Below are positions 1 through 24,055 of a stretch of DNA of 64,000 nt, one piece after another. The notes beneath the pieces were generated by a model that saw nothing but the letters and a program-made list of their open reading frames with translations, was not told the DNA's origin and did no database searches. Each line of letters opens with the position of its first letter. Positions within the stretch are counted from its first letter, which is position 1. Origin of the DNA: Escherichia phage 132; the sequence record MZ417521, one strand, 5' to 3'. A program made the translations under genes and the position numbers.

Positions 1-1509
1 GAAGGTTTACCGGAAATTGCTAATAGCAAACAAGCGATTATCGCTAAAATCTTTGAAAACCAGGAAAAAGATTTCCAGACAGCTCCAGAGTACAAAGACG
101 AAAAAATTGCTCAGGCATTCGGTTCTTTCTTAACAGAAGCTGAAATCGGTGGTGACCACGGTTACAACGCTACTAACATCGCTGCTGGTCAGACTTCTGG
201 CGCAGTAACTCAGATTGGCCCAGCTGTTATGGGTATGGTACGTCGTGCTATTCCTAACCTGATTGCTTTCGATATTTGCGGTGTTCAGCCGATGAACAGC
301 CCAACTGGTCAGGTATTCGCACTGCGCGCAGTATATGGTAAAGACCCAATCGCTGCCGGCGCTAAAGAAGCATTCCACCCAATGTATGGTCCAGATGCAA
401 TGTTCTCTGGTCAGGGTGCTGCTAAGAAATTCACAGCTCTGGCTGCTAGCACACAAACCACAGTAGGTGATATCTATACTCACTTCTTCCAGGACACTGG
501 TACTGTGTATCTGCAGGCTTCTGCTGTAGTAACAATCGATGCTGGCGCAACTGATGCAGCTAAATTAGATGCTGAAATTAAGAAACAAATGGAAGCTGGT
601 GCACTGGTAGAAATCGCTGAAGGTATGGCTACTTCTATCGCTGAACTTCAGGAAAGTTTCAACGGTTCCACCGATAACCCATGGAATGAAATGGGCTTCC
701 GTATCGATAAACAAGTTATCGAAGCTAAATCTCGTCAGCTGAAAGCTGCTTACTCTATCGAATTAGCACAAGACCTCCGCGCTGTTCACGGTATGGATGC
801 TGATGCTGAACTGTCTGGTATTCTGGCTACCGAAATCATGCTGGAAATCAACCGTGAAGTTGTTGATTGGATTAACTACTCAGCTCAGGTTGGTAAATCT
901 GGTATGACCCTGACTCCAGGTTCTAAAGCTGGTGTATTTGACTTCCAGGATCCGATTGATATTCGTGGTGCTCGCTGGGCGGGTGAATCCTTTAAAGCTC
1001 TGTTGTTCCAGATTGACAAAGAAGCAGTTGAAATTGCTCGTCAGACCGGTCGTGGTGAAGGTAACTTCATTATCGCTTCCCGTAACGTAGTTAACGTTCT
1101 GGCTTCAGTTGATACCGGCATTTCTTATGCTGCACAGGGTCTGGCTACCGGCTTTAACACTGATACTACCAAGTCAGTATTTGCTGGTGTTCTGGGTGGT
1201 AAATACCGTGTATATATCGACCAGTATGCTAAACAGGATTATTTCACTGTAGGTTATAAAGGTCCGAACGAAATGGATGCTGGTATTTACTATGCTCCAT
1301 ATGTAGCTCTGACTCCGCTGCGTGGTTCCGATCCGAAGAACTTCCAACCAGTAATGGGATTCAAAACTCGTTACGGTATCGGTATCAACCCATTTGCAGA
1401 ATCCGCTGCTCAGGCTCCGGCTTCTCGCATCCAGAGCGGTATGCCTTCTATTCTGAATAGCCTTGGTAAAAACGCTTACTTCCGCCGTGTATATGTTAAA
1501 GGTATCTAA
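1..1509 (+). CDS. 23: Major capsid protein gp23, 5' end lies outside the window
   Basis: Frame 1 is open from nt 1; translation EGLPEIANSKQAII...RRVYVKGI matches T4-type gp23 from memory. Confidence 0.95.
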   Translation, partial: EGLPEIANSKQAIIAKIFENQEKDFQTAPEYKDEKIAQAFGSFLTEAEIGGDHGYNATNIAAGQTSGAVTQIGPAVMGMVRRAIPNLIAFDICGVQPMNSPTGQVFALRAVYGKDPIAAGAKEAFHPMYGPDAMFSGQGAAKKFTALAASTQTTVGDIYTHFFQDTGTVYLQASAVVTIDAGATDAAKLDAEIKKQMEAGALVEIAEGMATSIAELQESFNGSTDNPWNEMGFRIDKQVIEAKSRQLKAAYSIELAQDLRAVHGMDADAELSGILATEIMLEINREVVDWINYSAQVGKSGMTLTPGSKAGVFDFQDPIDIRGARWAGESFKALLFQIDKEAVEIARQTGRGEGNFIIASRNVVNVLASVDTGISYAAQGLATGFNTDTTKSVFAGVLGGKYRVYIDQYAKQDYFTVGYKGPNEMDAGIYYAPYVALTPLRGSDPKNFQPVMGFKTRYGIGINPFAESAAQAPASRIQSGMPSILNSLGKNAYFRRVYVKGI

Positions 1510-1524
1510 TCTTTGACGATTTAA

Positions 1525-1540
1525 GGGACCTTCGGGTCCC
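1525..1540 (+). terminator. Hairpin GGGACC-TTCG-GGTCCC followed by TTT, downstream of gene 23
   Basis: Perfect 6-bp GC stem with UUCG loop and T-tract seen in sequence. Confidence 0.6.
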
Positions 1541-1557
1541 TTTAGTTGTTTTTATGG

Positions 1558-1565
1558 TATAAATA
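1558..1565 (+). promoter_or_regulatory. T4 late promoter TATAAATA for gene 24
   Basis: Exact TATAAATA 28 nt upstream of gene 24 ATG; GGAAAG RBS follows. Confidence 0.7.
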
Positions 1566-1592
1566 AATCATATAAACCAAAAGGAAAGCGCA

Positions 1593-2876
1593 ATGGCTAA
1601 AATCAACGAACTTCTGCGCGAATCAACCACAACGAATAGCAACTCAATCGGTCGCCCAAATCTCGTTGCTTTGACTCGCGCTACCACTAAATTAATATAT
1701 TCTGACATTGTAGCAACGCAAAGAACTAATCAACCTGTTGCTGCTTTTTATGGTATTAAATACCTTAACCCAGACAACGAATTTACGTTTAAAACTGGTG
1801 CTACTTACGCTGGCGAAGCTGGGTATGTAGACCGAGAACAAATCACAGAATTAACAGAAGAGTCTAAATTAACTCTCAATAAAGGCGATTTATTCAAATA
1901 TAATAATATCGTTTATAAAGTATTAGAAGATACACCATTTGCTACCATTGAAGAAAGCGATTTAGAATTAGCTCTTCAGATTGCAATTGTTCTTTTAAAG
2001 GTTCGTCTATTTTCTGACGCAGCGTCAACGAGCAAATTTGAAAACTCTGATAGTGAAATTGCGGATGCTAGATTCCAGATTAATAAATGGCAAACTGCAG
2101 TTAAATCTCGTAAACTTAAAACTGGCATCACAGTTGAATTAGCACAAGATTTAGAAGCAAATGGATTCGATGCTCCTAATTTCCTGGAAGATTTGCTTGC
2201 AACTGAAATGGCGGATGAAATCAATAAAGATATTCTACAGTCTTTGATTACAGTATCAAAACGCTATAAAGTTACAGGAATTACTGATACTGGATTCATT
2301 GATTTGAGCTATGCATCTGCACCTGAAGCTGGTCGTTCATTATACCGAATGGTATGTGAAATGGTTTCACATATCCAAAAAGAATCAACTTATACAGCAA
2401 CGTTCTGTGTTGCTTCAGCTCGTGCCGCTGCGATTCTTGCTGCATCAGGTTGGTTAAAACATAAACCAGAAGATGATAAATATCTTTCACAAAATGCCTA
2501 CGGGTTCTTAGCTAATGGTTTACCGCTTTATTGCGATACTAACAGCCCATTAGATTATGTAATCGTTGGTGTAGTAGAAAATATCGGCGAAAAAGAAATT
2601 GTTGGATCAATTTTCTATGCTCCGTATACAGAAGGTCTTGACTTAGATGACCCTGAACATGTAGGTGCATTTAAAGTTGTAGTTGATCCAGAAAGTTTGC
2701 AGCCATCTATCGGTTTATTAGTTAGATATGCTTTATCTGCAAATCCTTACACTGTAGCAAAAGATGAAAAAGAAGCAAGAATAATTGATGGTGGAGACAT
2801 GGATAAAATGGCGGGTCGTTCAGATTTGTCTGTTTTATTAGGTGTTAAGCTACCAAAAATTATCGTTGATGAATAA
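1593..2876 (+). CDS. 24: Head vertex protein gp24
   Basis: 427 aa, same length as T4 gp24; position directly after gene 23. Confidence 0.93.
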   Translation: MAKINELLRESTTTNSNSIGRPNLVALTRATTKLIYSDIVATQRTNQPVAAFYGIKYLNPDNEFTFKTGATYAGEAGYVDREQITELTEESKLTLNKGDLFKYNNIVYKVLEDTPFATIEESDLELALQIAIVLLKVRLFSDAASTSKFENSDSEIADARFQINKWQTAVKSRKLKTGITVELAQDLEANGFDAPNFLEDLLATEMADEINKDILQSLITVSKRYKVTGITDTGFIDLSYASAPEAGRSLYRMVCEMVSHIQKESTYTATFCVASARAAAILAASGWLKHKPEDDKYLSQNAYGFLANGLPLYCDTNSPLDYVIVGVVENIGEKEIVGSIFYAPYTEGLDLDDPEHVGAFKVVVDPESLQPSIGLLVRYALSANPYTVAKDEKEARIIDGGDMDKMAGRSDLSVLLGVKLPKIIVDE

Positions 2877-2882
2877 AACAAA

Positions 2883-2898
2883 GGGACCTTTCGGTCCC
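2883..2898. terminator. Bidirectional hairpin GGGACC-TTTC-GGTCCC between convergent gene 24 and rnlB
   Basis: Palindromic GC stem flanked by A-run and T-run. Confidence 0.6.
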
Positions 2899-2905
2899 TT
2901 TTTAT

Positions 2906-3910
2906 TTAACTTACCAATTCAATCCAAGCCGGACGAAGTACATCTTGTACCATTTTAACCAATTCCTTTTTAATCAAAGAAGGATTATCCGCTTGAGTTA
3001 GAGTAATACCTTCACGAGAAGTTTCTTCCAAAATATCTTGAACAGTTAGCCCCATCACCTTTCCAAAATCCTTCGGACCAATTTCGCCAATTTTAGAAAT
3101 AACGTTATTTACTCGGTTCAGTGTAACGTAGCAAGCTAAAATTCCCAGCAATTTATTATCAGCTTCTGACAACTCAACTTTAGCTTTAATAGGCTTATCA
3201 GACTTTTTCTTTTCACTAAATTTAGAGTTCTTGCATTTAATCGCTACGCGATTGCCATTAGGCATCCAAGAAGGATAACAAGGTTTCAATACATATCCTT
3301 CAGCGGTAAATACTTCGCCTTTTGCTTCGGCATTCCAAACACATTTATTTGCATCAACTAATCCAGCATGGCCTACTGTAAAATTATAATCTTGGACGAC
3401 AGAATCTAAATCATTTGGCAATTTAATAAGCTCTTCAAATTTACCGCGACCCAAAAGTGGAGCCATTTTAAATTTAAATGTATTACAGAATGATTCCATC
3501 ATATAATCATCGACATAAGTTACATCACCACTTTCTGTAGTAACAATAATGTCAAATACATAAAAATCTTTATCACCATAATCGACATTCTTCTGAATGC
3601 CAGGTCCAGCGAATTCACCAAAGACTTGATAAGATACAACTGCTGAAGTTTCCATAATATCTTGTACTGCTTTAATGGAATCAGCGTAATTCTTTAGAAT
3701 AATTTCATACCCAAAGAAATCTTCAGCAGGAAGAATCGGTCCAGTACGTTTAGCACAAGTTGCTTTATCGCGTTCAATAATCAGTGAGAAATTTGTGCCA
3801 TGAATCTTTTCACGAGCTACCCATTCGCCGCCAGTCAATCCTAAACTATAAAGTTTTTCAATGAATTTAGAATTGTAATGATTTTCAAGACTGCTATACT
3901 TTTTAAACAT
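2906..3910 (-). CDS. rnlB: RNA ligase 2 (Rnl2)
   Basis: 334 aa; [21 protein letters not shown]-terminus and KIHGTN nucleotidyltransferase motif I match T4 Rnl2. Confidence 0.93.
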
Positions 3911-3919
3911 AATTAATCC

Positions 3920-4198
3920 TCAAAATGTAATTTCTAACCAATCACCATCACGTTGGTCACTATTGACTTTAAAGCTAAATCCTTCTTTTCTCAGCCAATC
4001 ACCAATTTCTTCAGTAATCAATTTATCGCGAGCAGTGCAATAATAACTAAAATATGTTTTACCTTGTTCAGCTGCTTTATTAGCAAGTTCCGAAAAATCT
4101 TTAATAAAACACTCTAGCTTAAACTGTTTGCTTTTAAGTGCTTTTTCACGTAATTGATTAGCAAAAGATTCATTTTCATAAAGATCATACTGTTCCAT
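3920..4198 (-). CDS. Hypothetical protein at the T4 24.2 position
   Basis: 92-aa ORF between rnlB and hoc. Confidence 0.65.
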   Translation of the reverse strand: MEQYDLYENESFANQLREKALKSKQFKLECFIKDFSELANKAAEQGKTYFSYYCTARDKLITEEIGDWLRKEGFSFKVNSDQRDGDWLEITF

Positions 4199-4400
4199 TT
4201 TTCACCTTCTTATTAATATGTCTTTTTCTATAGACAACTTTTTCTCGAGTCTCAAATTTATTCTTAGCAGTCATAGCTCGAGCCCATAATACAGCCACTT
4301 CCTTTGCCTGTAAGTTCAATTCACGAGCAATTTCAATGAATGACTTTCCAGACTCATGGAGTGTAAACACCACAACCTCAGTTCTCATAATCAATCTCAT
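4185..4400 (-). CDS. Hypothetical small basic protein with putative helix-turn-helix, at the T4 24.3 position
   Basis: 71-aa ORF; SGKSFIEIARELNLQAKEV looks like an HTH. Confidence 0.6.
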   Translation of the reverse strand: MRLIMRTEVVVFTLHESGKSFIEIARELNLQAKEVAVLWARAMTAKNKFETREKVVYRKRHINKKVKNGTV

Positions 4401-4469
4401 GTTATCGAGTTGGTGCCATTATATACATCGTTTTCTGATTGCGTTTTGTGTGCTTTCAAAATGAAGAAA

Positions 4470-4483
4470 GGGGCCGAAGCCCC
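4470..4483 (-). terminator. Hairpin GGGGC-CGAA-GCCCC downstream of hoc
   Basis: GC stem with GNRA-like loop followed by T-rich tract on the minus strand. Confidence 0.6.
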
Positions 4484-4488
4484 TGAGA

Positions 4489-5913
4489 TTATGGATAGGT
4501 ATAGATGATACCAGTTTCTAAAGCAGTTTTATGAATGATGTATCCATTACGCGATTCTTGAACATCAACTTCTGGATAGTCTTTCATCATCTTCTGAAGA
4601 GTGTAACGATGCAAGTAGTATTTACTATCTGGATCTTCAGTTTTCCAATCTTTACCTTCTTCAGTCATTTTTTGGATTTCATCCATAACCCACCAACCGC
4701 ACCAGATATAAGCTGAGCTACGATGTGGAAGAGGATGAACATAAGGTAATTCACCTTCTGGTTCCGGAGCAACTTTATCAGTCACTTGAACTTGACCTGT
4801 GGCTTTAACTGTTTTACTATCATAGTCAGTTGCTGTAACGACAGCAGTAACTTCAATAGTTTGACTTCCAATAGATGAGGTATCAACAGTATATACGTTA
4901 GTTGACCCTTCCACAGGAGAAGAATCTTTCTTCCATGAGTAAGTAATTTGTGCTGCTTCAGGTGCGCCAGTAACATTAGCAGTAAATGTAGCCGAAGCAT
5001 CTTGCTGAACATTAATAGAAGGAGGAGTCAATGTAACCTGTGGATTCATTGTCTTCTTATTAACTGTCAATGATACTTCATTGGAAGTAACTTCCTTTTC
5101 ATTATAATTTTCTGCAGTTACTTGGGCTACGCATTTAATTCTTTTTACTCCACTTGTAGTTGGAGTATAGTTAAATGTAGAGTTAGTTTCTCCACCAACT
5201 TGTGAATCATCTACATACCACTGATACGTGGCAGACGCTCCATCAGGTTGAGAAGCTAAGGCAGCAGTAAATTGAACCGGGGTTCCAATTACTCCAGCAG
5301 CAGGACTATCAGGAGTTACTGCCAAGGTAGTTGTCTGCGTCTTTTTATTAACCGTCAATGATACTTCATTAGAAGTAACGCTCAGTGCATCATAATCTGT
5401 CGCAGTTACTTGAGCTACACACTTAATTTTTTTAACTCCGCTTGTAGTAGGAGTATAATTGAATGTAGCAGAAGTTGCTTCGCTCACAGGAGAACCGTCA
5501 ACGTACCATTGATACGTAGCAGATGCGCCCGATGGCTGTGAAGCTAAGGCAGCAGTAAATTCAACGGCTGTTCCGATTACTCCTTCTGGAGGACTATTAG
5601 GAGTTACAGCTAAGGTAGTTGTCTGTGTCTTATTTTGAACTGTGATAGTTGTACTAATTTCAGCTGTTTCAGCTTCAGCTTCAGCTTCTGGAACTGTATT
5701 TGTTGCAACCACTTTAATAGTCTTTTGACCAGCAGGTCCTTTTAATACATAATTAAAGGTTGCTTCAGCTCCATCCTGTGGAACATTATCTACACTCCAA
5801 GCATATGTAATAGGTCCATCTCCAGTTTGACCACTGGGTGTAGCAGTAAACTGCTTGGTTTCATCAATAACCCCTGTTGGTGTTTTAGGAGTTATATCAA
5901 CTGTAAAAGCCAT
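4489..5913 (-). CDS. hoc: Highly immunogenic outer capsid protein Hoc, long form with an extra Ig-like domain
   Basis: 474 aa; N- and C-termini match T4 Hoc (376 aa); internal ~96-aa unit duplicated. Confidence 0.9.
   Translation of the reverse strand: MAFTVDITPKTPTGVIDETKQFTATPSGQTGDGPITYAWSVDNVPQDGAEATFNYVLKGPAGQKTIKVVATNTVPEAEAEAETAEISTTITVQNKTQTTTLAVTPNSPPEGVIGTAVEFTAALASQPSGASATYQWYVDGSPVSEATSATFNYTPTTSGVKKIKCVAQVTATDYDALSVTSNEVSLTVNKKTQTTTLAVTPDSPAAGVIGTPVQFTAALASQPDGASATYQWYVDDSQVGGETNSTFNYTPTTSGVKRIKCVAQVTAENYNEKEVTSNEVSLTVNKKTMNPQVTLTPPSINVQQDASATFTANVTGAPEAAQITYSWKKDSSPVEGSTNVYTVDTSSIGSQTIEVTAVVTATDYDSKTVKATGQVQVTDKVAPEPEGELPYVHPLPHRSSAYIWCGWWVMDEIQKMTEEGKDWKTEDPDSKYYLHRYTLQKMMKDYPEVDVQESRNGYIIHKTALETGIIYTYP
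5058..5633 (-). repeat. Tandem ~288-bp in-frame duplication inside hoc (two copies of one Ig-like domain)
   Basis: Protein repeat NKKTQTTTLAVTP..ASQP.GASATYQWYVD..SGVK.IKCVAQVTA..EVSLTV occurs twice; nucleotide repeat visible near 5050-5090 and 5335-5380. Confidence 0.8.
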
Positions 5914-5922
5914 AAGTTATCC

Positions 5923-6603
5923 TTATTTTAATGTTACGAAAGAAGAGTTACGCGTTTCACGAATTAGAACTGATCCGTCACGGTTAATGTAGTAAATTAA
6001 GCTAAATAAAGTTTGGTGTGCCGACGCATGTTCAAAACTAGTTGGGTGAGATTTCCAATCCGGAGTTTCAGCAATCCACTGGTAAATCCACCAAGGAACA
6101 GTGCAGAATCCTGGATTTTTTCCAATCAGCTGAAGATTCGGACTAAAGTTTTCCGGAAGAGTAAATACAGACGGCTTTTCAGATTCAATAATCTCAGCTA
6201 CAGCCTGTTCGAATTTTTCTTCAACAAAAGGAGTATCTTCAATCAAAACATCGGTATTTTCAGGAATTTTATCCGTTTCTACTACTTCAATTTTAATGTC
6301 AGATTTAACCGGAGAATCAATCAGAAGTGCTGCTTCTGGATTGACTTCTTCATCGTCATATTTTAATCCCTCTGCGGCATCAGCAGCATCAATTAAGTCT
6401 TTAATAGATAACCCATCAGTCTCTGGCATAGGTTCACTAGCGAGCTTCTGGAGGGCTTCTTCAATATCAATAACGATATTATCAAAAGATTTATTCTTTT
6501 TGACCTTTATACCAAACTGTTCAGCATATTCAGCTAATTTAGCTTTAGCTTCTTTATTATCATCAAGAGCCTTCAGCTCTGCAATATAATCTTTATCTAT
6601 CAT
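5923..6603 (-). CDS. inh: Inhibitor of prohead protease (Inh)
   Basis: 226 aa, at the T4 inh position between hoc and uvsW. Confidence 0.8.
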   Translation of the reverse strand: MIDKDYIAELKALDDNKEAKAKLAEYAEQFGIKVKKNKSFDNIVIDIEEALQKLASEPMPETDGLSIKDLIDAADAAEGLKYDDEEVNPEAALLIDSPVKSDIKIEVVETDKIPENTDVLIEDTPFVEEKFEQAVAEIIESEKPSVFTLPENFSPNLQLIGKNPGFCTVPWWIYQWIAETPDWKSHPTSFEHASAHQTLFSLIYYINRDGSVLIRETRNSSFVTLK

Positions 6604-6616
6604 AATATTTCCTCAG

Positions 6617-6624
6617 TATAAATA
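6617..6624 (+). promoter_or_regulatory. T4 late promoter TATAAATA upstream of uvsW
   Basis: Exact TATAAATA 30 nt upstream of uvsW ATG. Confidence 0.6.
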
Positions 6625-6653
6625 TAGATATATTTATTACATGGTATTTAGAC

Positions 6654-8165
6654 ATGACTGACATTAAAGTACATTTTTATGATTTTAGTCACGTGAGAAT
6701 TGATTGTGAAGAAAGTACATTTCATGAACTCCGTGATTTCTTTAGCTTTGAAGCTGACGGGTATCGTTTTAATCCGAAATACAAATATGGTCACTGGGAT
6801 GGACGAATCCGTCTTTTAGATTATAATCGCCTTCTTCCATTCGGCTTAGTCGGGCAAATTAAAAAGTTCTGTGATAATTTTGGCTATAAAGCCTGGATTG
6901 ACCCACAAATTAATGAAAAAGAAGAATTATCAAGAAAAGATTTTGATGAATGGCTTTCTAAATTAGAAATCTATTCAGGAAATAAAAGAATTGAACCACA
7001 CTGGTATCAAAAAGATGCAGTGTTCGAAGGATTAGTTAATCGTCGTAGAATTCTTAATCTTCCAACATCCGCAGGTAAATCTTTAATTCAAGCTTTGCTT
7101 GCACGTTATTATTTGGAAAATTATGAAGGTAAAATTCTTATCATTGTTCCAACAACTGCTCTGACAACTCAGATGGCTGATGACTTTGTTGACTATCGTT
7201 TATTCAGTCATGCAATGATAAAGAAAATCGGTGGTGGAGCATCAAAAGATGATAAATATAAAAATGATGCACCGGTAATTGTTGGTACATGGCAAACTGT
7301 AGTAAAACAACCAAAAGAATGGTTCTCACAGTTTGGAATGATGATGAATGATGAATGCCATCTTGCCACAGGAAAAAGTATTTCATCTATCATATCAGGT
7401 TTAAATAACTGCATGTTCAAATTCGGTCTATCAGGTTCATTACGTGATGGCAAAGCCAATATAATGCAGTATGTTGGAATGTTTGGTGAAATATTTAAGC
7501 CAGTAACGACTTCTAAATTAATGGAAGATGGGCAAGTAACTGAGCTAAAAATTAATAGTATTTTTCTTCGCTATCCCGATGAGTTCACTACTAAATTAAA
7601 GGGAAAAACTTACCAAGAAGAAATAAAAATTATTACTGGGCTCAGTAAAAGAAATAAATGGATCGCTAAATTAGCTATTAAGCTTGCGCAAAAAGATGAA
7701 AACGCTTTTGTCATGTTTAAGCATGTATCACATGGTAAAGCTATTTTCGATTTAATTAAAAATGAATACGATAAAGTTTATTACGTATCAGGGGAAGTTG
7801 ATACTGAAACACGCAATGTAATGAAAACCTTAGCTGAAAACGGTAAAGGAATAATTATAGTAGCTAGTTATGGTGTATTTTCTACTGGTATTTCAGTTAA
7901 AAATCTGCATCACGTTGTTTTAGCGCACGGTGTTAAATCTAAAATTATTGTATTGCAAACAATAGGTCGCGTATTACGTAAGCATGGTTCTAAAACAATC
8001 GCAACGGTCTGGGACCTCATTGATGATTGCGGTGTTAAGCCAAAATCTGCTAATACGAAAAAGAAATATGTTCATTTGAACTATCTTTTAAAACACGGCA
8101 TTGATCGTATTCAGCGCTACGCAGATGAAAAATTTAATTACGTAATGAAAACAGTTAATTTATAA
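6654..8165 (+). CDS. uvsW: UvsW SF2 DNA helicase / annealing protein
   Basis: 503 aa; Walker A-like LPTSAGKS, DECH box (MNDECHL), helicase C-terminal motifs. Confidence 0.93.
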   Translation: MTDIKVHFYDFSHVRIDCEESTFHELRDFFSFEADGYRFNPKYKYGHWDGRIRLLDYNRLLPFGLVGQIKKFCDNFGYKAWIDPQINEKEELSRKDFDEWLSKLEIYSGNKRIEPHWYQKDAVFEGLVNRRRILNLPTSAGKSLIQALLARYYLENYEGKILIIVPTTALTTQMADDFVDYRLFSHAMIKKIGGGASKDDKYKNDAPVIVGTWQTVVKQPKEWFSQFGMMMNDECHLATGKSISSIISGLNNCMFKFGLSGSLRDGKANIMQYVGMFGEIFKPVTTSKLMEDGQVTELKINSIFLRYPDEFTTKLKGKTYQEEIKIITGLSKRNKWIAKLAIKLAQKDENAFVMFKHVSHGKAIFDLIKNEYDKVYYVSGEVDTETRNVMKTLAENGKGIIIVASYGVFSTGISVKNLHHVVLAHGVKSKIIVLQTIGRVLRKHGSKTIATVWDLIDDCGVKPKSANTKKKYVHLNYLLKHGIDRIQRYADEKFNYVMKTVNL

Positions 8166-16691: not shown

Positions 16692-16695
16692 CAAT

Positions 16696-16713
16696 GGGGA
16701 CCGAAAGGTCCCC
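16696..16713. terminator. Bidirectional hairpin GGGGACC-GAAA-GGTCCCC between gene 54 and the convergent alt block
   Basis: 7-bp GC stem with GAAA loop and flanking T-run. Confidence 0.6.
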
Positions 16714-16719
16714 ATATTT

Positions 16720-17010
16720 TTATTTACGGAATGAAATAAAAGCAGCAACTGAAGCAACTAAACTGTCTTCAATATAAACTTCAATTTTTACCGGAGCTTC
16801 TGACTCAAATTTACCTGTTACTACACCTTGGAAAATGCTTTCAGTCTGTTCTGGCTTTGAAAAATTTTCAGAAGGAAAAATTCCGAACTTTTTATCTGTT
16901 CCAAAAATTTTGATAAATTCGTCGTAAACCGCTTCATTAAAAGCGTTATCAGCAGGAATAACGCCTTCAACTGTGAGTTCTTGACCTAAAAAGCGTAAAG
17001 AAGATTTCAT
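16720..17010 (-). CDS. Hypothetical protein at the T4 alt.-3 position
   Basis: 96-aa ORF with its own early promoter and GAGGA RBS. Confidence 0.65.
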   Translation of the reverse strand: MKSSLRFLGQELTVEGVIPADNAFNEAVYDEFIKIFGTDKKFGIFPSENFSKPEQTESIFQGVVTGKFESEAPVKIEVYIEDSLVASVAAFISFRK

Positions 17011-17039
17011 TTTGTGTTCCTCATGTTATGTCAGTAAAA

Positions 17040-17072
17040 TTATTATAACACAACACGAGGGACTTGTAAACT
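17040..17072 (-). promoter_or_regulatory. T4-type early promoter (GTTTAC -35, TATAAT -10)
   Basis: Minus strand: GTTTAC, 18-nt spacer, TATAAT, then conserved leader ttactgacataacATGAGGA. Confidence 0.6.
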
Positions 17073-19128
17073 ACATTTTGAACTTTTTAGACATTCCGTT
17101 GATGTTAACCAAAGAAGCCAAGATTTGAGAAACTTCGTTTTCCTCTTCTTTTGATTCTTCTACAAGGAATTGATTAAATCCAGCCATTGGACGAACTTCA
17201 CCAGTTTCCATTAGATGGTCGCCATCATATACCGATTCTTCTAATTGTTCAGAAGGAGGAACGATTGTGCCTTCGATTAGATACTTGTTATAAGCAGTTT
17301 CTTTCATCATGTACGTACTCACTTTATTAATCTTCAGCAAAATTCCACGCGGTAAAATAACTTCAGCTTCTGATGGAAATCCTGATAAATGTCCTGGAAC
17401 GATAACTTTGATTCGCTCAGCTCCTTTAATTACCATACCCACGCTAGTTTCAGCATCTTCATTCGCATAAGCAGAGTGACTGCCCATATGCATCAAATCT
17501 TCAGCATCAACTGAACCTTCTCCTTCACCAGAAAATACTGTGCCGGAATCATCTAGGGCCATATAGTTTTTACCATACTCACCGAAGATATTTGGTTTAA
17601 GCGATGTGGATACGAAGTTCTTGAAGTAGAACATTTTATTTTCAATGTTATGACGCAAAGTTTTAAAGGTAACTTCTTGCCCACGATAAAGAGTAGTTCC
17701 TGGAGGAAGAACAGAACCTTTAGCAAATGCAGAATCCAACGTCTCGATGTGTTTAATAGCTCGTTCCATATATTCTTCACGGGTAGAATCAGGTTTACCT
17801 AAAAGGAACGAGTTCATTTCAACATATGAATCTGCACAATAATCTTCAATTACATCAGATTCAGCTTGAGTTAATCCTTTTGGAGTTACTTCGGTGCTTG
17901 CGTATTCATATGCCTGAGCGGCAGATTCATTAATCAATTTATAAATGCCATTCATGACAAATTGAATAATAGCTGTCTTTTCATCTGGTGTAGCTTTAGA
18001 ACCTTTAACTAAATCATTGATAATTTTCTTAATAACATCAAAGCTATTAGAAATATTAATGTCAGCAAGATCGCTTAAAATTTTATCAGTTTTATAATCA
18101 AAGAATTCTTTATTCTTTAAATATTCTTGAGAACCTTGATATGTTATATCGCTCTGCAACTTGATAGATGGATCACGTAAACGTGCATGGGCTAATGCAA
18201 TATGATTTCGGAAACTTTCTAGTTCATAATCGTTAGATTTAAAACGAGAAGCACTTCTCATACCACCGATAGCTCCTTTGCTAAAGTTTGAACCAATCTG
18301 AATAACGCCAGAGTTCATCGGACCTTCTGCTTTATATACCGGAACTTTAGATTCAAACTCTTGATATTTCTTAGCAGCGAAGCTATCACCCTGAAGTGAA
18401 GCATCAACAGTAGAATATTGAGCTTGTGCTGCTAATCGACGACTAATTTTAGTTTTCTGAATAACAGCTTGATCCGTGCGCTTATCATTTTCTAAAGCAA
18501 TAGAAGCAGCAACAGCGACAGCTTTAGGAACAGCATTACCTGTTTTAACGTCTACATAAACATCACCAACCTTTGATTCAACTTTTGTGAATAACTCAGT
18601 TGAAATAGGAGGTACACCTGGAATGTCTTCTAAATTGGCATTTTTACGGTAAACCATAATATATGCATATTTCTTATCATAGTCCCAGATTTCCTTTAAA
18701 AGAACATATCGACCTGCTCCTTTAGTACGTACTAAACGGTCGGCAATAACTTGCATTTGACGAGCTGCACCATTTGTTTTACTCTTTAGTACGCGGAATA
18801 AGCATGCGTCAATTTTATATTGTTTCATTGTTTGAAGAGCAGTATCAAAAACGGCATTAATGACACCAATTGGATTTCCACCCAAGTTTCTAAGTTTAAC
18901 TAATGATAGTTTCTCATTAACACCTATCATTACGATATGCATCATTTTATCGCCTGGCTTAACGTTTTTATTTGTATCACCACCAGAGGTGTATGTACAA
19001 AATCTAAATCCAGGAAGCACACTTTCTTCACCGGCTTGAATAGCAAAAATTTGAGGTATTTTATGCTTAGGATTTAAGTTAACAACCGGCGCCGAAGCGC
19101 CGTCAAATAATTCTGTAATAAGTTCCAT
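17071..19128 (-). CDS. Alt-family ADP-ribosyltransferase paralog, capsid-packaged internal protein type
   Basis: 685 aa; N-terminus MELITELFD... parallels the adjacent Alt; C-terminal R-S-E triad (LYRGQ, VSTSL, EAEVILPRG). Confidence 0.85.
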   Translation of the reverse strand: MELITELFDGASAPVVNLNPKHKIPQIFAIQAGEESVLPGFRFCTYTSGGDTNKNVKPGDKMMHIVMIGVNEKLSLVKLRNLGGNPIGVINAVFDTALQTMKQYKIDACLFRVLKSKTNGAARQMQVIADRLVRTKGAGRYVLLKEIWDYDKKYAYIMVYRKNANLEDIPGVPPISTELFTKVESKVGDVYVDVKTGNAVPKAVAVAASIALENDKRTDQAVIQKTKISRRLAAQAQYSTVDASLQGDSFAAKKYQEFESKVPVYKAEGPMNSGVIQIGSNFSKGAIGGMRSASRFKSNDYELESFRNHIALAHARLRDPSIKLQSDITYQGSQEYLKNKEFFDYKTDKILSDLADINISNSFDVIKKIINDLVKGSKATPDEKTAIIQFVMNGIYKLINESAAQAYEYASTEVTPKGLTQAESDVIEDYCADSYVEMNSFLLGKPDSTREEYMERAIKHIETLDSAFAKGSVLPPGTTLYRGQEVTFKTLRHNIENKMFYFKNFVSTSLKPNIFGEYGKNYMALDDSGTVFSGEGEGSVDAEDLMHMGSHSAYANEDAETSVGMVIKGAERIKVIVPGHLSGFPSEAEVILPRGILLKINKVSTYMMKETAYNKYLIEGTIVPPSEQLEESVYDGDHLMETGEVRPMAGFNQFLVEESKEEENEVSQILASLVNINGMSKKFKM

Positions 19129-19131
19129 GAT

Positions 19132-21228
19132 TTATCCTTGAACGAACTTGTAAGGCATGTTTGTAATATCTATGCAAGACGCAATAATTCCGAGAGATGA
19201 TTCTGCTTTCTGTTTAACATTTGATGAAACAAATGATGCAAAGTCAACTCTGTCTTCTATTTCAATATCACCTGTCATTGCAACCAATTCACCAGTTTCC
19301 ATTAAATGGTCTCCATCATAGATTACCGATTCGGTGAGCTCTTCCGTGGTCATAACTTCAGCTTGAATGAGTTTTGTATTATTAGATGTTGTTCCGTCAT
19401 TATTAGAAGCATCAGTTATTTTATTAACCTTGACCATCAATCCGCGTGGTAGAATAACTTCAGCTTCTGTTGCTATTCCGAGACTTCCTGGATATACAAC
19501 ATTAACTTTATGAGCTCCATCAATTGCCCATCCTATTTGAACTTTAACGTATTCAGGATTTTCTTTATACGCTCTTATTTCGTTTGGATTAATAGTTATT
19601 CCTTCTTCATTTTTATCAACTGTTAATTCATTGCGAGCTTCTGGTTCTAAAAGACCAATACCAGCATGTGTGATTCCAAAACGTCCAAAAATGATAGGAG
19701 TTAAAGAAGTAGATACAAAATTTCTGAAGTAGAACACTTTATTTTTAACTAAAGCTTCGTATATAGGAGCAGTCATACTCTGAGCACGATAAACTGTAAT
19801 GCCTTCTGGTATACGATCACCATTTTCAAAAGCAGAATCTAAATTAGTTATAGCAGCTTCAATTTCTTTTTCACTCATTACTTCATAACGTTCTGGATCA
19901 TAACGACCCAAAAGAAGATTATTGATGTCAGTATACCCTGATCCACAGTATTCTCTAATACCTCTCTTTTGTGATGGAGTATATTTAGAACCATCACGAG
20001 CGATTGTAATATCAATCATAGGACCAGCTCCTACGCCAGAGAAACTGTATATCATTCGTTTAAGAAATTTAGTTTTTGCTGCGTTCCAGGAATTTTTAGT
20101 TATTTCTTCCCAGACTTCATCTGGTTGTCCTTTACGATTTTTATTGTGTTTAGCAAGCCAACTATCTTTGTATTCATCAAAAAGTGAATTAACTGCTGCT
20201 GCGTATTTTTCTAAACATTTTATTGAGGTAGTTGGCTCATTTTTAATAGCATGTAGAATTGTATCTTTAATTTTTTCAGAAACTTCACCAACCCGACTCA
20301 GCGGAAAGAATTTATAATCATAATGAAGTTCATCTGCCGTTCCTTCAGCAATAATTTTTGCTGCCTTTGTTTTAGAAGCTAATGAATTAATTCCAATTTT
20401 CATTTCTTCTGCTTCGGGAATTAAAGGTGCAGTAGCTGGTTTATTAAAATTAGCTGCTGTAGATTCATACTTCTGGAATAATTCACTTTCAAATCTAGAA
20501 GATTCCAATGACTGACTTTGTGCAATTGCTCTACGGGAAATTTTAACTTTAGTAATAACAGCTTGGTCAGAACGCTTATCATTTTCTTGTGCAATTGATG
20601 CTGCAATTGCCTCATTTTTAGTTACTTGGGCTCCAGTATCTTTATTGATATAAACATCGCCGACCTTCGATTCAACTTTAGTAAAGAGCTCGGTACTAAT
20701 TTCCGGAACTCCTGGAATGTCTTCTAGTGATACGTTTTTGCGATGTATAAGAATATATGCATACTTTTTATCATAATCCCAGAGTTCCTTAAGAAGGACG
20801 TATCTGCCACCTGAACGACTACGGATAAGTCTATCAGCAATAACTTGAATTTGTCGAGCTTGACCAGCGGTTTTAGACTTAAGAATACGGAGCATACAAG
20901 CATCAATTTTATATTGACGCATTGTTTGCATTGCAACAGTAAAAACTGAATTGATATAATTAATTGGGCTTGGACCGAGACCTTTTAATTTAGCAATTGA
21001 ACCTTTAGCAGTTAATGTAAAAGGAACAATGTGCATCATTTTATCGCCCATCTTTAAATCACGGTTAGTATCACCTCCAGATGTATAGGTACATAAACGA
21101 AAGCCTGGTTGCTCAATTGCGTCATCAACATGAACTGAAAAAATTTGCGGTATTTTCTTCTTTGGATTTAAGTTTGTAATCGGAAGAGTAGTATCTTCGT
21201 CAAATAATTCTGTAATAAGTTCCATCAT
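19132..21228 (-). CDS. alt: Alt ADP-ribosyltransferase (injected; modifies host RNA polymerase alpha in T4)
   Basis: 698 aa (697 from second Met); R-S-E triad (VYRAQ, VSTSL, EAEVILPRG); adjacent to gene 30 as in T4. Confidence 0.88.
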   Translation of the reverse strand: MMELITELFDEDTTLPITNLNPKKKIPQIFSVHVDDAIEQPGFRLCTYTSGGDTNRDLKMGDKMMHIVPFTLTAKGSIAKLKGLGPSPINYINSVFTVAMQTMRQYKIDACMLRILKSKTAGQARQIQVIADRLIRSRSGGRYVLLKELWDYDKKYAYILIHRKNVSLEDIPGVPEISTELFTKVESKVGDVYINKDTGAQVTKNEAIAASIAQENDKRSDQAVITKVKISRRAIAQSQSLESSRFESELFQKYESTAANFNKPATAPLIPEAEEMKIGINSLASKTKAAKIIAEGTADELHYDYKFFPLSRVGEVSEKIKDTILHAIKNEPTTSIKCLEKYAAAVNSLFDEYKDSWLAKHNKNRKGQPDEVWEEITKNSWNAAKTKFLKRMIYSFSGVGAGPMIDITIARDGSKYTPSQKRGIREYCGSGYTDINNLLLGRYDPERYEVMSEKEIEAAITNLDSAFENGDRIPEGITVYRAQSMTAPIYEALVKNKVFYFRNFVSTSLTPIIFGRFGITHAGIGLLEPEARNELTVDKNEEGITINPNEIRAYKENPEYVKVQIGWAIDGAHKVNVVYPGSLGIATEAEVILPRGLMVKVNKITDASNNDGTTSNNTKLIQAEVMTTEELTESVIYDGDHLMETGELVAMTGDIEIEDRVDFASFVSSNVKQKAESSLGIIASCIDITNMPYKFVQG

Positions 21229-21248: not shown

Positions 21249-21256
21249 TATTTATA
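21249..21256 (-). promoter_or_regulatory. Late promoter TATAAATA (minus strand) upstream of alt
   Basis: Complement of plus-strand tatttata at 21249-21256. Confidence 0.5.
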
Positions 21257-21277
21257 AAATTAAAGGCCCGAAGGCCT

Positions 21278-21466
21278 TTAATAATCTAGTGGTAAGAGAG
21301 TACGATATATTTCAAACTTCGGACCTTTTTCATAGGCATCAAATGTTTCTGTGAATTTATTATAAGCATATGCATCTACAAATTCGAGAATGACTTGTGA
21401 TACAGAAGTAGAAACATCTCCACCTTCTTTTTGAGCAATGACAATTGTTTCTAAGTAAGCTTTCAT
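21278..21466 (-). CDS. Hypothetical small protein between gene 30 and alt
   Basis: 62-aa ORF, start overlaps the gene 30 stop. Confidence 0.55.
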   Translation of the reverse strand: MKAYLETIVIAQKEGGDVSTSVSQVILEFVDAYAYNKFTETFDAYEKGPKFEIYRTLLPLDY

Positions 21467-22926
21467 AGACCAGTTACCTCATGAAAATCACCAAATACAT
21501 CCTCGAATGTATTAGCTTTAGTTTTATCTTCACGTAAACGAATCGCAATCGGAAGAAATAATTTAACGTAATCAGTGCGGCCATCAGATTTTAACCAACC
21601 GTTGCATTCGCACTCTAGAATTTTTCCAATATAATAATTTTGGTTTTCCATAATGCGAGTACGGTCAAGTTCATGCGATTTTACACCGGCTTTATCTTTT
21701 AAGCCTGAACCAGCATTTACTTTAATTTTTCCACACTCTGACTCAAGAATAAATCCACCTGCTTTAGTAGGGTCTTTACGGTGAGGATAAATTCCTACAA
21801 TTTTTAAATCAACATCAATTACTTCTTTAAATTTATAGAGATTTTTTGAACGAGCATTTTCCCATAATCCATCGATATTTTTGAGAATAATACCTTCAAG
21901 ACCTTGGTCAATATACTTTTTATAAATTACCTTAGCTTCATCTAGGTTATTTACTACCTGGTTTTCAATTAAAATTACTTTATCATATCCCGATGTCATT
22001 TGTTCTAGTTTAGAAAAACGTACATCATATTTTAAACGAAACGCTGGAAGACCGTATATTTCTACCAACGGGACATAATCCCAGACCTGAAACTTCATAC
22101 ATTGAGCTTCTTTTTCAGAAATGGTTCCTTTTAAGGATTTATTGGCGATTCCATTAGAAGTAGTACGAGATTCCGCTACTTCGGCGAATTCTTTGGCTTT
22201 ACTAATTTCAGGATAAGCATCAAAAAGAAAATCTAGGCCTTCTGGTTCCTTTTTAACTTGCTCATGGTATACCAATTCGCCATCAATTAACACACCTTCT
22301 GGATGAATCTGGCGGGCTTCAGCAGTCATTTTGATTAACTCTTCCTTAAGAAGATCTAATCCTAGATATTCATTACCAGCTCGTGATAAAAGACGAACAT
22401 CATCTAATTCATCGCCTCGGACTTCAGCAAAACACCGAGCTCCATCTGCTTTTAACTGCGCAAAGGCTGGAAACTTGATATTCTTATTAATGCCTTTTTC
22501 ATCATAAGAACTTGCAAGCATTTGAGGTTGTTCAGGAATTAAACCTGGCCAAACTTTATTTGCAATAGATACTGAAGCACCGCATTCAAGGTCTCGCATC
22601 ATAACTCGACGCAAAACTTCAACATCATCCTTTTTACCATCAGTGATATATCCAGTTAATTCCTCAATTGCAGCATTTCCAGTCAATTTCCGAGTAGCTA
22701 ACGTGAATTCAATGAAGTCAAGCATATCGGTAATAGTCAGCATTCCAAAACTCTGGGTAGCAATACCCGGTTTAGGCCATTTCTTGATATAATACTGTAA
22801 CCCACGAGAATAAGTCAGACGATATACTCGTTTAAGCAATTCATTATCTTTATTCTTTTCAAGAATTGCTTGCTTCTGCTTAGTTGAACCAATAGATGCT
22901 ATTTCGTTCAGAATTTTAAGAATCAT
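21463..22926 (-). CDS. 30: ATP-dependent DNA ligase gp30
   Basis: 487 aa, same as T4 DNA ligase; MILKILNEIASIGSTKQKQAILEKNKDNELLKRVY. Confidence 0.96.
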   Translation of the reverse strand: MILKILNEIASIGSTKQKQAILEKNKDNELLKRVYRLTYSRGLQYYIKKWPKPGIATQSFGMLTITDMLDFIEFTLATRKLTGNAAIEELTGYITDGKKDDVEVLRRVMMRDLECGASVSIANKVWPGLIPEQPQMLASSYDEKGINKNIKFPAFAQLKADGARCFAEVRGDELDDVRLLSRAGNEYLGLDLLKEELIKMTAEARQIHPEGVLIDGELVYHEQVKKEPEGLDFLFDAYPEISKAKEFAEVAESRTTSNGIANKSLKGTISEKEAQCMKFQVWDYVPLVEIYGLPAFRLKYDVRFSKLEQMTSGYDKVILIENQVVNNLDEAKVIYKKYIDQGLEGIILKNIDGLWENARSKNLYKFKEVIDVDLKIVGIYPHRKDPTKAGGFILESECGKIKVNAGSGLKDKAGVKSHELDRTRIMENQNYYIGKILECECNGWLKSDGRTDYVKLFLPIAIRLREDKTKANTFEDVFGDFHEVTGL

Positions 22927-23192
22927 TGTTCATCCTTTAGAGTTTGGTTTACAGCTCTATTATAAATCAATTCATCATTAAGCTCAGTCAAAGACCTGTG
23001 GTACGTGGTTCTAACTTTATTTCCTTGCATCCAGTGCTTGACGTAAATGAAACCTTGCTCTACACATTTTTTAAAAATTCGTTCGTCTTTTTGAGCTCGG
23101 AATTCTGGATTGCATCTAAAAAATTGATTTACGTGACCGTAATCACGTGTAGTATTACCTTCATTTTCATAAATAGTGTGAACAACAAACAT
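22923..23192 (-). CDS. Hypothetical protein at the T4 30.1 position
   Basis: 89-aa ORF in the 30.x cluster. Confidence 0.65.
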   Translation of the reverse strand: MFVVHTIYENEGNTTRDYGHVNQFFRCNPEFRAQKDERIFKKCVEQGFIYVKHWMQGNKVRTTYHRSLTELNDELIYNRAVNQTLKDEQ

Positions 23193-24055
23193 TAGAATGC
23201 TCCTTGGAAAATATTATCACCACTAGTAAATCTATTAAAATATCCTGCATCACCAGGCTTAGTATAACTCCACGTATGGAATGGATTCATATGATACGGG
23301 TGTGTATAATATGGATTATATGGATGTGTATAATATGGATTATACGGATTAAATCCAGGAGTTCTCCAGGTAGTGTTCCAACGAAAAGAATCGTTTTTAA
23401 CCATCTTCTCAATTACATCTTTTATAGCTTTTTCACTATCAAAACTTTCTTTATTTTCCTTCGGTGAAAAAAGCTTATTTTCTACATCATTCCATGTATA
23501 AACTCGCTGCGCAGTTTTTGGAATATTGTCACGCTCTCCTCGAGCCATCCAATAAACAGGAACATTTAATATTTCACTCGCATGATCGCAGTGGTGGGCG
23601 AGATCGTCAATATAACAAATTACATTATATTTCTCTTTTGCCTTTTTGAATAACTCTTCTTTTGAAGAATCATGACCACACATCATTACTTCTGAGAAGG
23701 CACCAGGAAAAAGAGCATTCAAATTAAATTGACGATTCAGCAGAGCGTCAATAGAATCACCCAATGCTGTAACAGCTACAAAATTATAATCTTCTTTTAG
23801 TTTGTTAATTACGCACAGGGCATCTTTATATGGAGACAGGTAACGAATAAAATCTGATCGATTGTATTTTTCAATTAGCTTGACACCAAGTTCTTCATCA
23901 CAATTAAAGAGTTTACCCGGAGAAATAAATTTCTCATCTTGGATCATTTTTAAAATATGTTCTAACGGAAGATTATATTTCTGAGCAAAATAAGGAAGAC
24001 CTGATTGCCAGCTTAAACATACTCCATCAATATCAGTTAAAATAGTAGGCTTCAT
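23192..24055 (-). CDS. HAD-like phosphatase / nucleotidase-like protein with Tyr/Pro-rich C-terminal tail, at the T4 30.2 position
   Basis: 287 aa; N-terminal LTDIDGV (HAD motif I-like) and YIDDLAHH; C-terminal NPYNPYYTHPY repeats. Confidence 0.7.
   Translation of the reverse strand: MKPTILTDIDGVCLSWQSGLPYFAQKYNLPLEHILKMIQDEKFISPGKLFNCDEELGVKLIEKYNRSDFIRYLSPYKDALCVINKLKEDYNFVAVTALGDSIDALLNRQFNLNALFPGAFSEVMMCGHDSSKEELFKKAKEKYNVICYIDDLAHHCDHASEILNVPVYWMARGERDNIPKTAQRVYTWNDVENKLFSPKENKESFDSEKAIKDVIEKMVKNDSFRWNTTWRTPGFNPYNPYYTHPYNPYYTHPYHMNPFHTWSYTKPGDAGYFNRFTSGDNIFQGAF
23301..23348 (-). repeat. 24-bp tandem direct repeat (x2) encoding NPYYTHPY in the 30.2-like tail
   Basis: tgtgtataatatggattata occurs twice with 24-nt period. 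Confidence 0.7.

Follow-up and report, generated by a model that had tools for sequence, protein, structure and literature searches.

Two adjacent genes on the minus strand of Escherichia phage 132 encode large proteins of the Alt family of ADP-ribosyltransferases (ARTs). They lie in the window studied here, a stretch of 64,000 nt from sequence record MZ417521 of this T4-like member of the genus Tequatrovirus. The upstream Alt gene is called gene A below, and its downstream paralog gene B. A preliminary description of the same DNA had reported two neighbouring large open reading frames (ORFs) of 698 and 685 residues on this strand, and both are confirmed (Table 1). The ORF of gene A begins MMELITELFD. 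In T4, where the ATGATG context is identical, curation puts the start of alt at the second ATG. By this convention gene A encodes 697 residues and starts at position 21225.

The two proteins are 41% identical over 723 alignment columns (BLASTP, E 2e-165), a similarity far beyond chance. Identity varies greatly by region, with 67% in N-terminal residues 1-235, 14% in the central residues 236-415, 32% in the ART domain and 34% in the tail. These values bear out the earlier picture of related N-terminal stretches of ~230 residues followed by divergent central and C-terminal regions. Between the two central regions no homology is found, as BLASTP returns nothing and hhalign gives a probability of 0.3%. 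Both proteins match Pfam family PF03496 (ADPrib_exo_Tox), A with 126.7 bits and B with 73.4 bits against a gathering score of 23.4. Both also match phrog_802, the Alt-like RNA polymerase ADP-ribosyltransferase, from end to end (E 1e-256 for A and 1e-273 for B). A scan of NCBIfam gave zero matches for all four proteins submitted.

Alignment with T4 Alt places the catalytic motifs of A at VYR480, S505-T-S507 and E587-A-E589, and those of B at LYR482, S507-T-S509 and E587-A-E589. The triad of Y-R, S-T-S and E-x-E is thus kept in both proteins, as had been proposed, and neither copy lacks the catalytic glutamate. The arginine, S-T-S and E-x-E align in all 15 copies compared; the sole deviation is S-A-S in the third Alt-like gene of Dhakavirus QL01. 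In an alignment with CdtA, 'tvyr' and E-x-E fall on the catalytic motifs of the toxin. In the C3/VIP2/iota family, an E-x-E motif marks those ARTs that modify proteins on arginine, and the ADP-ribosylating turn-turn (ARTT) loop that precedes it helps select the substrate in C3/iota-type toxins. The segment before and through E-x-E reads GSL-GIATEAE in A, GHLSGFPSEAE with an aromatic residue in B, and GGSL-APSNEME in T4 Alt. By profile and catalytic motifs, A and B are mono-ADP-ribosyltransferases of the R-S-E clade.

A and B share a four-part plan consisting of an N-terminal alpha/beta domain (residues ~10-235), a central region of ~180 residues, the ART domain and a tail of ~60 residues. The AlphaFold model of the gene B product has a mean predicted local distance difference test score (pLDDT) of 75, with values of 80-93 in most of the ART core. 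Its parts are an alpha/beta N-terminal domain at ~10-225, an all-helical central region at ~250-415, the ART domain at 416-625 and a disordered tail at 629-685, where pLDDT falls below 50. Foldseek matches the modelled ART fold with probability 1.0 to Vis, C3bot, VIP2, CDTa and Certhrax (E 1e-7 to 1e-5 for the first four). A search of PDB found no solved Alt structure and matched the ART core alone, to CdtA and BECa. When the central regions and tail were compared with PDB sequences and Pfam at permissive thresholds, only sub-threshold noise was returned (CesA at E 0.02, YpM at E 0.12). Precomputed Pfam assignments for Alt-like homologs (P0001-P0120) list a further family, PF26846, on full-length members. 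Because truncated homologs without the N-terminus lack PF26846, this family probably models the Alt N-terminal domain.

The hexapeptide MELITE precedes the N-terminal domain of both proteins, and the common start MELITELFD seen in the preliminary description holds in the alignment with T4 Alt. Every copy compared, including those of Dhakavirus, carries (L/I)-x-E, the pattern of gp21 protease sites, at residues 4-6. It reads I-T-E within the MELITE of A and B and L-N-E in the QL01 copies, which makes the hexapeptide a candidate propeptide. At the other end of the protein, the tail motif YDGDxLMETGE is invariant in 15 of 15 copies, Dhakavirus again included, and the rest of the tail is 28-35% identical between lineages. 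This motif holds an L-x-E pattern that resembles sites of the gp21 protease, and cleavage at L-M-E would give a product of ~69.5 kDa for T4 Alt. This would fit a size of ~70 kDa for virion Alt, but a second gp21 cleavage in the tail is only a tentative possibility and forms no part of the main claim.

The preliminary description overlooked that the upstream gene does not simply encode T4 Alt. It proves to be a mosaic allele, the catalytic half of which is strongly divergent from T4 Alt. The two proteins are 70% identical overall. Residues 1-235 are 99% identical, with a synonymous divergence (dS) of 0.16, and the tail is 93% identical with dS 0.12. Between them, identity is 33% in the central region (dS 1.57) and 60% in the ART domain (dS 1.30). 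At the nucleotide level, identity drops from at least 92% to 22-75% inside the divergent cassette and recovers to 87-98% beyond it. Collinear high identity over the whole gene, as strict orthology with T4 alt would imply, is not found. Gene A is the positional ortholog of T4 alt and, from these alignments, a mosaic with allelic cassette replacement.

The gene A cassette is widespread. Compared with the copies in T2, slur03 and ESH35, the gene A product is 90-93% identical in the central region and 96-100% identical elsewhere. Of 540 records, 316 match this T2-type allele over 80% or more of the query, and the majority of the remainder, T4 among them, match the two flanks only. The T4-type allele is the less common one, found in about 200 of the 540. 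Among T2-type A orthologs, the ratio of nonsynonymous to synonymous substitution rates (dN/dS) is 0.08-0.09.

In T4, the gene order is 30, alt.1, alt, alt.-1, alt.-2 and alt.-3. The T4 record gives Alt 682 residues, the length stated in the preliminary description. It assigns 61 residues to alt.-1 and 67 to alt.-2 and notes that these two arose by duplication of the beginning of alt. Whether the second copy corresponds to intact forms of alt.-1 and alt.-2 had been left as a question, and the answer is yes. The T4 product of alt.-1 (NP_049810) shares 95% identity with residues 1-56 of B, that of alt.-2 (NP_049809) 96% with residues 62-116, and phrog_23015 and phrog_15247 match the stretches of B that correspond to them. 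A run of five A's in gene B is reduced to four in T4, and the resulting frameshift, visible as a single-base gap in the alignment, creates the stop of alt.-1. T4 also lacks 1,699 bp between two CTAAA(G/A)AGT direct repeats, equivalent to codons 117 to ~681 of gene B; the two BLASTN segments that flank the deletion overlap by the 9 nt of the repeat. On this evidence, alt.-1 and alt.-2 are the remnant of a full-length paralog of which gene B is the intact form, and T4, with its copy frameshifted and deleted, has no intact second Alt gene.

The C-terminus of T4 alt.-2, SLQVPRVVL followed by a stop, is an out-of-frame reading of the last B codons and of the alt.-3 promoter (window positions 17036-17090 against 5066-5113 of T4 locus L001). 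As judged from its alignment with gene B, alt.-2 is largely annotated pseudogene debris. The deletion junction of slur03 is identical to that of T4, without gaps. Because this natural isolate shares the junction, the possibility that the T4 remnant is a laboratory artefact is rejected, and the remnant is an inherited polymorphism.

The region from 16500 to 21600 matches 546 phage records, 366 of them over at least 80% of its length, and the matches listed have ~96-97% identity. Gene B itself has matches in 497 records. It is intact, at 95-99% identity, in 401 of these, among them T2, AR1 and RB6, and about 96 carry a T4-type remnant. The two-gene pair is therefore the majority state in Tequatrovirus genomes, T2 included. 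Among B orthologs, no part of the protein departs from a dN/dS of 0.024-0.035. Because 401 of the 497 records have an intact B with at least 95% identity and dN/dS is so low, B is a working gene under strong purifying selection, and on these comparisons A and B are both working genes. The genomes compared show each of the four possible pairings of A allele with B state. A T4-type A gene is accompanied by a B remnant in T4 and by intact B in PM133 and AR1. A T2-type A gene is accompanied by a remnant in slur03 and by intact B in this window, T2 and ESH35.

Dhakavirus QL01 carries three tandem Alt-like genes at the same locus (694, 681 and 707 residues; YP_009202932, YP_009202931 and YP_009202930; positions 1096-7356 of locus L003). 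They have the same architecture as the A/B pair, with N-terminal domains that are just 41-46% identical to those of A and B. In QL01 gene 1, the ART domain is 94% identical to that of gene A at the protein level, whereas the N-terminal domains of the two proteins are 46% identical. QL01 gene 2 has a fourth cassette type, with E-Q-E, that is unlike any Tequatrovirus cassette. QL01 gene 3 is a distant counterpart of gene B, 44-65% identical by region, and it is the copy with S-A-S in place of S-T-S. For the ART cassettes of gene A and QL01 gene 1, the proportion of synonymous differences (pS) is 0.42 and dS is 0.61, compared to a saturated background of pS 0.65-0.83 and 58-68% protein identity in flanking genes of the same two genomes. 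Because the cassette has a pS so far below that of its flanking genes, the comparison indicates that it moved between Tequatrovirus and Dhakavirus after their divergence.

On the minus strand the Alt genes stand in the order DNA ligase gene 30, alt.1, gene A, gene B and alt.-3, and the plus-strand genes 54 and 48 converge on this block. The coordinates of these and other features are collected in Table 1.

Table 1. Features of the Alt locus, with positions given in the 64,000-nt window.
Feature	Position	Strand	Remarks
DNA ligase gene 30	21463-22926	-	
alt.1 homolog	21278..21466	-	62 aa; 90% identical to T4 Alt.1; phrog_1976; directly upstream of the Alt genes, downstream of gene 30
G+C-rich hairpin AAAGGCC-TTCG-GGCCTTT, then AATTTT	21262..21279	-	terminator-like; between alt.1 and the Alt genes; read from the sequence
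TATAAATA	21249..21256	-	matches the late-promoter consensus of T4 exactly; 21 nt before the Alt start codons
Gene A	19132..21225 (21228 if first ATG)	-	697 aa (698 aa); T2-type allele; positional ortholog of T4 alt
Divergent cassette in gene A relative to T4 alt	~19390..20510	-	codons ~238-612; central region and most of the ART domain
Gene B	17071..19128	-	685 aa; by alignment the undamaged counterpart of the alt.-1/alt.-2 pseudogene in T4
Five-A run in gene B	18965..18969	-	four A's in T4; frameshift
CTAAAGAGT	18781..18789	-	upstream copy of 9-nt direct repeat; T4 deletion starts here
CTAAAAAGT	17082..17090	-	downstream copy of 9-nt repeat; far end of T4 deletion
YDGDxLMETGE tail segment	B 17179-17247; A 19297-19338	-	residues ~628-650
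Strong early-type sigma-70/T4 promoter TTTACA, 17 nt, TATAAT, with TG	17042..17070	-	11 of 12 matches; top promoter-like site of the region
alt.-3 homolog	16720..17010	-	96 aa; DUF5498; Pfam PF17602, E 7e-64; 99% identical to T4 Alt.-3; last gene of the leftward block
Bidirectional terminator-like hairpin	16694..16715	both	between alt.-3 and converging gene 54

The element TATAAATA is the sole late-promoter motif between 16600 and 21600, and by its match to the consensus it would act as a late promoter. T4 alt has an identical upstream context. The hairpin just upstream is present in T4 as well, and a pattern scan for terminators did not flag it. From the stop of gene A to the ATG of gene B there are 3 nt, and the Shine-Dalgarno sequence AAGGA precedes this ATG. 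Between the two genes, motif and promoter scans detect neither a late-promoter motif nor a strong match to a promoter of the sigma-70 type. Inside them, the promoter scan gives weak matches at 9 or 10 of 12 positions, no more than expected by chance. Because TATAAATA lies upstream of A, the gap of 3 nt carries AAGGA and no strong promoter is found between the genes, A and B most likely form one late, translationally coupled unit.

The strong early-type promoter that directly follows the gene B stop lies upstream of alt.-3, the gene that it serves. In T4, mutants with a C-terminal extension of alt.-3 escape the CmdTAC defence system, as CmdA degradation is blocked (PMC11618068). On the other side of the Alt genes, the alt.1 homolog matches a recent Pfam family, PF24647 (Phage_blade), with E 1.9e-29. 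Further upstream, a minus-strand ORF resembling gene 30.2 (23192-24055, 287 residues) ends in the short tandem peptide repeat NPYNPYYTHPYNPYYTHPYHMNPF; 30.2 of T4 is 837 nt long.

T4 Alt provides a model for how these proteins may act. Some 40 copies are incorporated into the scaffolding core of the prohead, and a small peptide is cut from the N-terminus by gp21 (PMC9958956). The enzyme enters the host along with the injected DNA, where it ADP-ribosylates Arg265 in one of the RNA polymerase alpha subunits and, with lower efficiency, other proteins (PMC2988021). By analogy, A and B would be made late from the TATAAATA promoter, with translation of B coupled to that of A. Their shared N-terminal module would take them into the prohead scaffolding core, and the gp21 protease would trim them. 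After injection with the DNA, both would consume NAD+ and, within the first seconds of infection, ADP-ribosylate arginines of host proteins. A is the alt ortholog equipped with a T2-type central-plus-catalytic cassette, and B a separate, strongly conserved lineage that decayed in T4.

We consider it probable that A and B are Alt-family mono-ADP-ribosyltransferases of the arginine type, encoded in tandem and transcribed late, and that they follow the T4 Alt-like route and act on overlapping but non-identical substrates. The analysis shows the homology, domain plan, catalytic residues, orthology, selection and distribution described above; that the genes are expressed late, that their products are packaged, processed and injected, and that the targets differ is predicted. 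Because the central regions have no detectable homology, the ART domains are 32% identical and the loop before E-x-E differs, the substrate sets of the two enzymes most likely overlap without being identical.

Several points weigh against this interpretation. T4 Alt is itself promiscuous, so that enzymes of divergent sequence may still have their key targets in common. The AlphaFold and Foldseek results cover only the 685-residue protein, the product of gene B. Literature searches returned no paper on the function or virion presence of the second paralog in any phage. There is also a discrepancy in numbering. An E577A mutant of T4 Alt is inactive (PMC11404850), whereas the translation from NC_000866 (alt at 5455-7503 of locus L001) places the glutamates of E-x-E at E574 and E576 and not at the published E577. 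The residue changed in E577A would be the second glutamate of E-x-E. A literature search for virion proteomes found none covering A or B, and publications on fPS phages, injected anti-restriction proteins and CmdTAC contained nothing about Alt enzymes.

The pair could instead provide redundant dosage. Both enzymes would then modify Arg265 of RNA polymerase alpha, duplication would raise dose or robustness, and divergence would reflect drift or adaptation to packaging. T4 already has both Alt and ModA acting on Arg265 (PMC2988021). A and B carry the same catalytic set and are similar in the region of the NAD-binding helix, and B is dispensable, as T4 and ~96 records retain only the remnant and slur03 is a checked natural case. 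However, redundancy does not account well for central regions without detectable homology, for ART domains that are 32% identical or for the change from GSL-GIATEAE to GHLSGFPSEAE. Nor would interchangeable copies be expected to differ as these do, with B at dN/dS ~0.03 across 400 genomes and A polymorphic with two old alleles. We regard this explanation as unlikely. The tolerated loss of B, with a frameshifted and deleted remnant in T4 and ~96 other records, might even mean that B is a decaying or non-functional duplicate here too. This is barely credible for an ORF that has no internal stop and retains all catalytic residues, and the pseudogene reading is rejected on the 95-99% conservation of B in 401 records and its dN/dS of 0.024-0.035 in every region.

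Other alternatives concern where B acts and what is modified. B may be made late without being packaged or injected, and act in the producing cell or serve mainly as a structural core component with secondary catalysis. The literature treats Alt both as an enzyme and as a protein of the core (PMC11404850), and the report that alt- mutants package more DNA (PMC3012670) implies a structural footprint. Such a role is nevertheless improbable for a protein with an N-terminal domain 67% identical to that of Alt, an identical MELITE with its (L/I)-x-E, an invariant C-terminal motif and coupling to alt in one late unit. It is also conceivable that one of the enzymes uses a non-canonical substrate, such as NAD-capped RNA or nucleic acid in place of protein arginine. 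No pointer to this is seen in the sequences, E-x-E is the arginine-specific signature and the Alt-type identity extends over the whole ART domain, all of which makes the idea quite improbable. Its precedents are ModB of T4, an R-S-E clade paralog that attaches NAD-capped RNA to proteins (RNAylation; PMC10468400), and the ARTs now known to act on nucleic acids (PMC11618068).

A pair of injected enzymes with overlapping but non-identical substrates thus remains the preferred reading, and a wider one can be put forward tentatively. It is possible that injected effectors are encoded at the alt locus as a polymorphic array of one to three copies. A lineage-specific module for delivery by the head, made up of the N-terminal domain and the tail motif, would stay constant and be combined with central-plus-ART cassettes that recombine even between genera. 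In such an array, B might be a distinct injected enzyme with its own host target, perhaps a defence or stress-response protein, and could have been overlooked in fifty years of T4 genetics since T4 has only a deletion remnant.

The preliminary description had implied that the gene pair is new, and this does not hold. Two Alt-like ADP-ribosyltransferases are annotated in hundreds of GenBank and RefSeq records, and the pair is already known at this level. A comparison published in 2006 likewise reported alt paralogs in T4-like phages, with a full-length one in 44RR (PMC1524935). What is added here are the exact lesions behind the T4 remnant, the recognition of the upstream gene as a second alt allele with a swapped catalytic half, and evidence for the exchange of ART cassettes between genera. 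Alt is a textbook case of a phage enzyme that is delivered with DNA to reprogram the host, and nearly all knowledge of it comes from T4. T4 is atypical in two respects, as it has B only as a deletion remnant and carries the less common of the two catalytic A alleles. In all likelihood, T2 and most wild relatives would inject two different ADP-ribosyltransferases. Known biology is unchanged by these results. The gap that they expose concerns which proteins the conserved second enzyme and the T2-type allele of Alt modify, and T2 is a ready experimental system for this.

Among the closest known systems are the gene pairs annotated as 'Alt-like RNA polymerase ADP-ribosyltransferase (x2)' in T2, AR1, RB18, teqskov and hundreds of Tequatrovirus genomes. 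The T2 pair has the same order and the same lengths of 697 and 685 residues, the annotated pairs have 95-98% nucleotide identity, and there is no difference of substance. T4 Alt (NP_049811) occupies the same slot as gene A, flanked by alt.1 on one side and by alt.-3 and the convergent gene 54 on the other. It also resembles gene A in its upstream terminator and TATAAATA context, its catalytic motifs and its overall architecture. It differs in having E-M-E where A has E-A-E, and A has an insertion of ~15 residues before the ARTT region. Compared with gene B, T4 Alt is 41% identical overall (67, 7, 34 and 35% in the N-terminal, central, ART and tail regions). The alt.-1 and alt.-2 ORFs share the position of gene B after alt, but are frameshifted and deleted.

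ModA and ModB of T4 are phage R-S-E ARTs that act on host transcription and translation proteins (PMC2988021, PMC5512222). The literature describes them as small early proteins that are not packaged and that, unlike A and B, do not have the N-terminal and central regions. The C3 exoenzyme, VIP2, iota/CDTa, Vis and Certhrax have the same fold and the same arginine, S-T-S and E-x-E as A and B, and belong with them to PF03496 and the R-S-E clade. However, these proteins are only 15-20% identical to the Alt proteins. They are secreted toxins with eukaryotic targets and another delivery route, and they have no phage-head N-terminal domain.

A parallel of another kind is offered by polymorphic toxins and by ART effectors fused to MuF (PMC9503650), which combine a constant delivery module with variable, horizontally exchanged enzymatic cassettes; at alt, cassette swaps are observed within the gene and between genera. 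Pfam scans detected no MuF or polymorphic-toxin pre-toxin domain in A or B, and the likeness is one of analogy and not of membership. The cassette exchange described here suggests that Alt effectors evolve in a manner similar to polymorphic toxins, which bears on the arms races between phages and their hosts.

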